Of a stretch of DNA of 25,079 bases, positions 1,040-2,553 are shown piece by piece (the stretch's first letter is position 1; each line of letters starts with the position of its first letter). The DNA lies in IMG/VR virus record IMGVR_UViG_2671180296_000013, positions 1-25,079 of that record. One strand, given 5' to 3'. Origin of the DNA: a virus (Duplodnaviria > Heunggongvirae > Uroviricota > Caudoviricetes). Made by a program: the position numbers and the translations under genes. Under the pieces are notes generated by a model that saw nothing but the letters and a program-made list of their open reading frames with translations, ran no database searches and was not told where the DNA came from.

Positions 1040-1110
1040 AAACCGGACATGGATCCCCGGAAAATTTTCATAAATAGCGAAAACCCGGCGAGGTCGCCGG
1101 CCCCGTAACA
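1040..1110 (-). other. cos site region; cosN-like 12-mer GGCCGGCGACCT on the minus strand at 1091-1102
   Basis: Reverse complement of 1055-1102 reads CGGGGCCGGCGACCTCGCCGGGTTTTCGCTATTTATGAAAATTTTCCGG, close to the lambda cos sequence as I remember it, with one mismatch in the 12-nt cohesive end. It lies directly upstream of the Nu1-like gene on the minus strand. Confidence 0.65.
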
Positions 1111-1662
1111 GGCCGGATCGCCAGAAAGGACCCGAAAATGATAATAATTATCAATTAAATAAAAGTTATCTCAACCGACAAGTTCACCATGAAAGAGGAC
1201 AAATAATGAGTTCGGTCTCAATGCATTAATTGATCTGCATCAAATTTAAGTAAAAACATCTTTGGACAATACAGAACACTGCAGTGAATATGGAAAAAGA
1301 CAATGTCATCGAAGAACAAAACCAGCAAAACAACAACCCGTAACATCCGTTTTCCCAATCACATGATTGAGCCAGATCAATATCGCCCTTGAGCATAAAG
1401 GCTCCGGCAACTTTTCGGCATGGGTTATTGAAGCCTGTCGCCGGAGGCTGGCAGCAGACATAAAATGTGCCCGTCAGTTAACTGTAACAAAAAATGATAC
1501 ACCGTCTGCTCTGTGATAACTGTTCATATAACCATTTCTTTATATTGCTGAATTTACAAAAAGTCGCAGTTATTAGTCGTATTTATTCCGAATTGAAATC
1601 ATCCGTCATATAAAATAAAAAAGAATAACAATAATAATCTTCTACCCTTATCAGTACCTTTA

Positions 1663-1691
1663 CTGCTGTGCTCCAACACAGCAGTTTTTTT
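1663..1691 (+). terminator. Intrinsic terminator-like hairpin plus T7 run (plus strand)
   Basis: Stem ctgctgtg (1663-1670) pairs with cacagcag (1677-1684), loop ctccaa, followed by ttttttt at 1685-1691. Confidence 0.5.
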
Positions 1692-2317
1692 GATTATGCT
1701 CACATATTTTTTCATCCCCACCGCACTGCACATTATAACTGTTGCTTTTCAATTCAGGCTTTGTGCAGGTATGTCTGAATCTCCTCCGGGAGAGGTCTTC
1801 ATCGTTATCAGCCCCAAAACACACCAGCGACACTGACAAAGAGCCTGCGAGTGCAGTTGCCCCCGTTTTCGTTTTATGATGTATTCACCCAGTCAAATAA
1901 TGAGCAAATTCAATCCATGTCAGACGGCAGAGAATCATAAAATTTAACCATCGTGCTTACATAAACAATCCGATAAAGACTTAACATACTTAAAATCGCA
2001 TATTGCATAAGAATAAATAATAAGTCATCAAAAAACATCGGGCAAAACTACCGCAACTCCAGTTAAAAAGACAATATATTAATCCAGCGACCTCATTTAT
2101 TATTCAGAAATGCTTAATAATAAGATATTTCCTGTTATTCCTTTATGGAGATCGGGTAACTGCTCCATGCCAGTCTTGTTGAATGGCTCAAAAAATAAGA
2201 GAATAATTCATAACATATATTGTAATTCAGGCTCGGTTATTTCGAATTGAATACTTGCATTAAAATCTGATAAAAAATTCGTCATAACAACAACATTCTC
2301 TTCTGCATGTGCCATAA

Positions 2318-2347
2318 CCTGCCGTAACAACCCGGCAGGTTTTTTTA
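2318..2347 (+). terminator. Intrinsic terminator-like hairpin plus T8 run (plus strand)
   Basis: Stem cctgccg (2318-2324) pairs with cggcagg (2333-2339), extendable to 9 bp, followed by tttttttt at 2340-2347. Confidence 0.55.
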
Positions 2348-2553
2348 TTGAATAAATTTCCGGTTTCTTCCACCATCGCACCGGCCAGGCGACTATGAGG
2401 GGACAACGCCGCGCTCCGTTAACGCAGTAAACCCCGGTGTGTATCGTTTTTGATTATCCCCGCACACTCGCGCAGAGGAGTCTCCCTGTCGGGCTGCGGT
2501 CTCTGTTAATACGGGAATACGGCGACAATACCGCGCATGGATAATAAGGTCGC

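Follow-up and report, generated by a model that had tools for sequence, protein, structure and literature searches.

Between the lysis genes and the cohesive-end site of a lambdoid Escherichia coli prophage (IMG/VR record IMGVR_UViG_2671180296_000013) lies an AT-rich block at positions 1105-2392 that appears poor in open reading frames (ORFs) and contains two intrinsic terminators. The window, by which we mean the whole stretch of 25,079 nucleotides (nt) that was analysed, has its late genes on the minus strand, and the hairpins of both terminators are oriented opposite to them. Which genes do these terminators belong to? As possible answers, an earlier reading of the sequence (the original prediction) had named one or more small RNA (sRNA) genes, small protein genes and the remains of a bor-type moron. 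Here, we consider it likely that the block is moron-type cargo which consists of a ylcI/ynfO gene, a form of the already described sRNA gene hnrS that ends at terminator 1 (unit 1) and a probable new paralogue of hnrS that ends at terminator 2 (unit 2). The coordinates are given in Table 1.

The GC content is 0.32-0.43 inside the block compared to 0.46-0.56 in its flanks, which bears out the description of an AT-rich block between the lysis region and cos. The two plus-strand terminators that had been described were also recovered, each as a 9-bp hairpin with a run of seven T residues; a scan of positions 900-2900 returned six terminator-like sites compared to 1.7 ± 1.2 in shuffled sequences. 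When the RNAs ending at terminators 1 and 2 were folded, an open 5′ part followed by a hairpin was predicted for both, with fold z-scores of -4.1 and -4.0, and none of 200 shuffled sequences equalled them.

Terminator 1 and the sRNA gene hnrS

The approximately 190 bases from the end of ylcI to terminator 1 have homologues of 84-87% identity in 568 of 5426 complete E. coli genomes, which is the set used for all surveys of genomes below. E. coli O157:H7 Sakai has three such homologues, in prophages Sp9, Sp10 and Sp12, and that of Sp9 sits between ECs1788, which encodes a YlcI/YnfO protein, and ECs1786 (Rz). In the Hfq-CRAC (crosslinking and analysis of cDNA) experiment of Tree et al. 2014, ECs1786...ECs1788, ECs1966...ECs1967 and ECs2255...ECs2257 rank 15, 19 and 11 among the intergenic regions; their read numbers in sample 1 are almost the same, at about 640,000 each, and they contain the orphan Hfq sites EcOnc12, EcOnc11 and EcOnc10, respectively (PMC4104026). 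The coordinates in that study refer to an older Sakai record, and the published EcOnc03 sequence lies 134-137 bases further in NC_002695.2; a correction of +135 was applied. After this shift, the EcOnc12 peak reads AUAAUCUUCUACCCAAUCAGUACAUUACUGCUGUGACUCCAACACGGC and covers the Sakai homologue from seed to hairpin, on the same strand as ylcI.

EcOnc10-12 have been renamed HnrS (Poudyal et al., PLoS Pathog 2026; PMC13502914). HnrS is a 66-nt Hfq-associated sRNA that accumulates in early stationary phase, with its own start determined by differential RNA sequencing (dRNA-seq) and an intrinsic terminator determined by Term-seq (PMC13502914). It represses hha tenfold by pairing at AGAAG in the ribosome-binding site, as proven by compensatory mutations, and it also pairs with the final 15 nt of mazF, for which an effect was not detected (PMC13502914). 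One hnrS per prophage is reported in that paper, and no paralogue is mentioned (PMC13502914).

Counting 66 nt back from the U-run would place the start of Sakai HnrS at AUAACAAUAAUAAUCUUCUACCC, with TTGAAA exactly at -35 to -30. Compared to this RNA, the window RNA is identical at 62 of 68 alignment columns (91%) and throughout its first 23 nt, and a shared model scores the Sakai and window alleles at 132-135 bits. The two have in common the position between ylcI and Rz, the strand opposite to the late genes, the -35 box, the 23-nt seed with the hha-pairing CUUCUACC and the register of the hairpin. The predicted hha duplex CUUCUACC:GGUAGAAG (-12.1 kcal/mol) is the same for both alleles, and 4% of shuffled seeds equal the energy of this validated duplex. 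In contrast, the window allele has a 3-nt deletion between -10 and +1, a U-A pair in the stem where Sakai has U.G, and an interrupted mazF-complementary stretch (predicted -21.5 compared to -27.1 kcal/mol for Sakai). Rfam, searched at the gathering threshold and at E up to 10, returned no match in the block and only RalA elsewhere in the window; a scan for known sRNA families, which the original prediction had put forward as a check, is empty because HnrS is absent from Rfam 15. Taken together, these results show by sequence homology that terminator 1 ends an allele of hnrS. Regulation of hha, which was shown experimentally for the Sakai allele (PMC13502914), would be expected of the window allele from its identical seed.

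Two further observations concern unit 1. A mirror unit on the minus strand at 1656-1763 reached 14.5 bits (E 1.2) and lacks a U-run, and it was treated as a chance match. In the second prophage of strain GB089 (L005, about 700-3500), an IS66 element lies inside hnrS between the promoter and the seed, with the 8-bp target ACAATAAT, and puts promoter and seed 2.7 kb apart.

Homopolymer insertions and the ylcI/ynfO gene

In the 20 closest complete E. coli genomes, the corresponding 1.5 kb is 99.1-99.5% identical to the window and 7 or 8 bases shorter. When the window was compared base by base with strain GB089 (L001), positions 355-1860 showed 16 single-base insertions, every one of which extends a run of the same base, and a single substitution. 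Since 16 insertions stand against one substitution, this pattern is that of homopolymer sequencing error and not of evolution, and the insertions are most likely errors of sequencing or assembly rather than biology. The extra bases include a C at 1372 and two G residues inside cosN (1087 and 1099), and the insertions disrupt the Nu1-type small terminase gene at several points, enlarge cosN by two bases and split ylcI. Because of these errors, ORF-based calls in 355-1860 are unreliable.

This affects the earlier statement that 1105-2392 holds no ORF of at least 61 amino acids (aa), which is literally correct (the longest are 59, 57 and 56 aa), but only because the extra C at 1372 splits a 70-aa gene. 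The window ORFs at 1303-1392 and 1367-1516 correspond to a single 70-aa ORF in GB089 (L001, 6300-6512), and the annotation of every close relative assigns this ORF to the YlcI/YnfO family. The uninterrupted ORF, taken from a 99.3%-identical relative, matches Pfam PF13132 with an E-value of 3.8e-20 (71.9 bits; cut-off 25). Like YlcI/YnfO of the K-12 prophages DLP12 and Qin, the corrected ORF lies beside the packaging genes in the same place and orientation; in contrast to the window, where the sRNA cassette lies in between, ylcI of K-12-like prophages directly abuts a conserved segment of about 190 bp. A search of PDB sequences with YlcI gave no match; judged by eye, the protein presumably resembles the ribbon-helix-helix fold. 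Taken together, the homology shows that the ylcI/ynfO gene of the block belongs to a known family, and its break in the window is most likely only apparent and caused by error. The suggestion of small protein genes was thus right for this one gene, and no other small ORF is conserved.

A probable HnrS paralogue at terminator 2

Within the window, the 15-nt sequence TTATTYCGAATTGAA is found only at 1583-1597 and 2237-2251, 654 bases apart, which are the -35 regions of the two units. A covariance model, R1, was built from five HnrS alleles only: those of Sakai, a Sakai variant, the window (long locus type A, described below) and two of long type B. In an unfiltered search, R1 matched 2236-2345 over model positions 1-112 with 37.2 bits (E 3e-4), and the next matches in the 25 kb had E-values above 1. 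Other unit 2 alleles scored 50-52 bits in type B (E about 2e-6 to 5e-6) and 34 bits in pig-associated enterotoxigenic E. coli (ETEC). The R1 alignment places the promoters of both units in register, and for unit 2 it predicts an RNA with its 5′ end near 2284 (C/AUAACAACAACAUUCUCUUCUGCAUGUGCCAU...) and its 3′ end at 2346.

The global identity of unit 2 to HnrS is 68-69%, and the local alignment has a z-score of 3.5, with 13 of 2000 shuffled sequences reaching its score. The two units agree in position, strand, promoter box and predicted length, and unit 2 has the layout of HnrS: an unstructured 5′ AUAAC(AAN)n tract (three or four AAN) and the CUUCU motif precede a hairpin whose register is that of HnrS. 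AAN triplets are a motif for the distal face of Hfq and were noted for AgvB (PMC4104026). The unit 2 hairpin is preserved through two double-sided stem changes, from A-U to C-G and from U-A to C-G. Unlike HnrS, unit 2 carries GCAUGUGCCAU in place of ACCCAAUCAGUAC and shows no complementarity to mazF. Over the Shine-Dalgarno (SD) sequence and AUG of hha, CUUCUGC:GUAGAAG with flanking pairs is predicted to form a duplex of -13.5 kcal/mol, slightly better than the validated HnrS duplex; hha is possibly a target of unit 2, which this calculation allows but does not show. Taken together, these results suggest that unit 2 is probably a paralogue of HnrS and not the same gene, and homology, architecture and conservation suggest that it is expressed and functional. 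In the literature, no description of unit 2 or of an hnrS paralogue was found. The idea of small RNA genes in the block thus holds for terminator 1 through the HnrS allele and probably for terminator 2 through the unit that the covariance model identifies.

The closest known parallels are AgvB and AsxR (RF02702 and RF02703), which are also short RNAs (51-60 nt) that are encoded by prophages and bind Hfq; their 5′ end is variable and contains ARN repeats, their 3′ terminator is conserved, and they form families of related, non-identical copies in lambdoid prophages (PMC4104026). AgvB starts with ...AUAACAC, resembling the units described here. In contrast to these units, which lie between Rz and cos, AgvB and AsxR occupy the PR′ moron site upstream of the lysis genes, and they act as sponges of core sRNAs. 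Identity with AgvB or AsxR was rejected, given the different location and the lack of any RF02702 or RF02703 match even at E up to 10; the Pas sRNAs, from another prophage site, gave no match either. A role of unit 2 as a sponge for GcvB was also rejected, since its CA-rich 5′ end pairs with GcvB R1 at -22.4 kcal/mol, which is no better than for dinucleotide shuffles (z = -1.1).

Several points weigh against this account of the two units. The 3-nt deletion between -10 and +1 makes the exact start of the window hnrS allele uncertain, and it may shift. A simple promoter scan calls neither unit's promoter, and both were placed by homology only. For unit 2, the R1 E-values are rough and 37 bits is modest. 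The covariation support is thin, with two pairs, a score that 6 of 500 shuffles reach, and two or three distinct alleles per unit. The pairing energy with hha is equalled by 7% of shuffled seeds. Finally, only 0.8% of genomes carry unit 2, and such rarity would also be expected of a duplicate in decay.

Distribution, conservation and alternative explanations

Unit 2 was found in 43 of the 5426 genomes, always at this position, compared to 568 with hnrS-type units. In the common short locus type, which includes Sakai and O55:H7, ylcI is followed by hnrS and then directly by the conserved 190-bp segment and Rz. In the two long types, A (the window and 20 genomes, for example those of strains GB089, RM9088 and 08-00022) and B (four genomes), the order is ylcI, hnrS, a 545-bp spacer, unit 2 and the 190-bp segment, with an overall identity of 75% between the two types. 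In a further 19 pig-ETEC genomes, a 200-bp stretch with unit 2 alone lies beside the 190-bp segment and Rz, at the same position and on the same strand, in a prophage with different terminase and lysis genes and without ylcI. Unit 2 thus adjoins the Rz-side segment on the strand opposite to the late genes in all three prophage contexts. Beyond these genomes, the 20-nt unit 2 seed had no match in representatives of 185,579 species, the 18-nt HnrS seed had only chance matches there in unrelated AT-rich taxa, and a scan of viral contigs with the promoter box returned the type A and B loci and chance matches only.

When types A and B are compared, their identity is highest in hnrS (0.8-0.96), in the unit 2 -35 box (0.92) and in the unit 2 seed and hairpin (0.96), and it is low in the spacer (0.3-0.7) and in the flanks of unit 2 (0.3-0.6). 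This conservation argues that unit 2 is maintained. It also bears on the alternative that unit 2 is a decaying, silent duplicate of hnrS whose hairpin persists only as an insulator that ends plus-strand transcription before the lysis genes. The rarity of unit 2 relative to hnrS, its loss from the common short type and its poor -10 (TAAAAA) would fit such decay. However, types A and B have an identical 21-nt seed ATTCTCTTCTGCATGTGCCAT and both keep the -35 box, in contrast to their diverged promoter spacers and flanks. A weak -10 of this TAAAAA type is also present in the experimentally active hnrS promoter, and unit 2 has been carried alone into a different type of prophage. We regard a silent duplicate as unlikely.

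A second alternative follows from the original prediction, which placed a possible promoter (TTGAAT, 17 nt, AATAAT) near 2189-2217, and thus implied a transcript of 100-150 nt. Such a promoter-like site exists at 2179-2207 instead, with 9 of 12 matches, and from it terminator 2 would end a transcript of about 133 nt. The module copied into the pig-ETEC prophages begins at about 2163 and thus includes this site, and a 134-nt RNA has a fold z-score of -2.7. However, identity there between types A and B is 0.6, and type B has lost both hexamers (CAATAT ... AAATAA), yet keeps the -35 box and seed downstream. Promoter-like sites are not in excess in the region (4 compared to 5.8 ± 2.5 expected). 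In addition, the HnrS model aligns unit 2 from 2236, in register with a promoter whose start is mapped in Sakai, and by this homology the promoter would be that at 2247-2276 and the RNA would be about 63 nt long. The longer transcript is accordingly quite improbable compared with the HnrS-like unit.

It is very improbable that the block encodes further small proteins and that the hairpins are their terminators. ORFs of 21-79 aa do occur on both strands, and in a few ETEC genomes the PGAP annotation pipeline calls a hypothetical protein over unit 2. However, a search of the small ORFs yielded ylcI, and the others had neither a Pfam match nor a conserved frame: no frame survives the indels between types A and B (1, 1, 1, 2, 2, 7 and 8 nt), type B lacks candidate start codons that type A has, and the ORFs of 57 and 79 aa extend through the hairpins. 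The remnant of a bor/iss-type lipoprotein moron, which the original prediction had considered and which the bor/iss gene between Rz and cos on the same strand in lambda and DLP12 would suggest, is hardly credible, since tblastn with lambda Bor gave no match in 1105-2392, and a DNA search of 50,697 phage records with the spacer was also negative; the spacer has no homologue outside its locus type.

Origin of the single-copy hnrS locus

The 3′ stem arm of Sakai hnrS, CACGGCAG, which contains the U.G wobble, and the downstream TTTTTTTATTGAA... match the 3′ end of unit 2, CCCGGCAGGTTTTTTTATTGAA. In contrast, the type A and type B hnrS alleles read CACAGCAGTTTTTTTGATTATGC in place of this Sakai 3′ end. 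BLAST aligns the short type to the long type in two segments, and the overlap of these segments falls inside the terminator. The short, single-copy type thus looks like a deletion by recombination between the two terminators, which left the U.G wobble behind; the direction of this event, from two units to one, is what the sequences would suggest.

Proposed function of the cargo region

We propose that the block would be cargo of the moron type, placed where the genome of a lambda-like prophage has its right end, with three genes transcribed against the late operon. The hnrS allele would produce a short Hfq-dependent sRNA from its own sigma-70-type promoter, ending at intrinsic terminator 1, and its action would lower Hha and thereby relieve the silencing of horizontally acquired genes by Hha/H-NS. 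Unit 2 would be a diverged copy of the same type of gene, with a different sequence after CUUCU (the anti-SD motif), and most likely makes a second Hfq-binding sRNA of about 63 nt with overlapping or different targets. Terminator 1 probably also halts read-through from ylcI, and both terminators would protect Rz and the lysis genes from antisense transcription that enters on the plus strand. In its arrangement, such a region resembles the bor moron of lambda and the iss moron of DLP12, which lie between Rz and cos, are read against the late genes and are cargo expressed in the lysogen, each with a promoter and terminator of its own; unlike the block, bor/iss encodes a lipoprotein, and its sequence is unrelated. 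The right end of the lambda-type chromosome, from the lysis cassette to cos, is a classical site of cargo genes that oppose the late operon.

A broader proposal, to which we give about even chances, is that hnrS belongs to a small family of prophage sRNAs that have a common promoter box and terminator and different seeds. The tandem pair would be ancestral, single-copy hnrS would have arisen by recombination between the terminators, and unit 2 would be active and Hfq-dependent with its own targets, possibly including hha through CUUCUGC. Before HnrS, no phage sRNA had been shown to counter xenogeneic silencing, and the dose of HnrS is considered relevant to virulence gene expression. If the proposal holds, a paralogue with a different seed in prophages of cattle- and pig-associated E. 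coli would mean that the module diversifies its targets like AgvB/AsxR, and a comparison of the two RNAs, as a simple natural pair, would allow a test of which positions in the seed determine whether hha is targeted.

Setting of the block and minor observations

Table 1. Features of the block and of its borders (positions in the window)
Feature	Position	Strand	Remarks
Large terminase subunit, end	1-339	minus	late genes
Nu1-type small terminase subunit	about 387-914	minus	late genes
cosN (about 1085-1100) and lambda-like right end with cosQ	1085-1150		left border of block; cosN presumed from lambda
ylcI/ynfO-family gene (DUF3950, 70 aa)	1303-1516	plus	split by +1 insertion at 1372
Inferred hnrS promoter	1593-1621	plus	-35 TTGAAA 1593-1598, 17-nt spacer, -10 TAAAAA 1616-1621; placed by alignment to Sakai hnrS locus
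hnrS allele (unit 1), about 64-67 nt	1625-1691	plus	5′ seed AUAACAAUAAUAAUCUUCUACCC, hairpin 1662-1685, U7 1685-1691 (terminator 1)
Non-coding AT-rich spacer between units, 545 bp	1692-2236		
Inferred unit 2 promoter	2247-2276	plus	-35 TTGAAT 2247-2252, 18-nt spacer, -10 TAAAAA 2271-2276
Probable HnrS-like paralogue (unit 2), about 63 nt	2284-2346	plus	AUAACAACAACAUUCUCUUCUGCAUGUGCCAU, hairpin 2316-2341, U7 2340-2346 (terminator 2)
Conserved 190-bp segment	2348-2540		Rz-side border of sRNA cassette, outside the sRNA genes; marks insertion site
Rz/Rz1	2802-3270	minus	

At the left border of the block, the window sequence matches the lambda GGGCGGCGACCT cohesive end and the flanking right-end sequence, and we take this site to be cosN; it is adjoined by cosB-type CATGTCCGG repeats. 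On the other side, a pair at 3607-5573 on the minus strand that, by eye from the translations, is presumably an IS21-like istA (390 aa) and istB (265 aa) interrupts the lysis region. RalA antitoxin sRNA at 23344-23523 on the minus strand (Rfam RF02694, 216.9 bits) marks a Rac-type early region.

The segment of about 190 bp is present in 4140 of the 5426 genomes, in up to 11 places per genome, and 691 of its places are on plasmids. It is richer in GC and 92-100% conserved, compared to 30-70% in its flanks. Its consensus fold reaches -57 kcal/mol on the strand of the late mRNA compared to -43 kcal/mol on the other, with many C-G to U-G changes, and it has no Rfam match. In prophages without hnrS, both K-12-like and others, ylcI directly abuts this segment. 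In strain S3 (L259, 606-746, minus strand), a different AT-rich insert with a 46-aa ORF on the late strand is found at the junction of ylcI and the segment. Since this junction is either closed or occupied by another insert elsewhere, the sRNA units appear to be cassettes at an insertion hot spot. Between the segment and Rz, there is an 80-aa ORF at 2554-2796 (minus strand), which relatives list as a hypothetical protein and which most related prophages lack; its sole match is weak and PilZN-like (E 0.035).

Within E. coli, DNA matches to the spacer occur in the same 43 genomes only. The spacer is non-coding, because indels break its frames, start codons are lost in type B (ATG to ATA at 1771 and ATG to AAG at 2110) and it has no homologue elsewhere. 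Although the spacer has otherwise diverged between types A and B, an inverted repeat made up of A and T only, at 2097-2123 (TTATTATTCAG ... CTTAATAATAA), stands out by its conservation (0.92). Two copies of the motif AATTCAGGCT, at 1747-1759 and 2224-2233, are kept in both types; the first copy lies within TTTCAATTCAGG, which is a near reverse complement of the hnrS -35 box, placed symmetrically to it across terminator 1.

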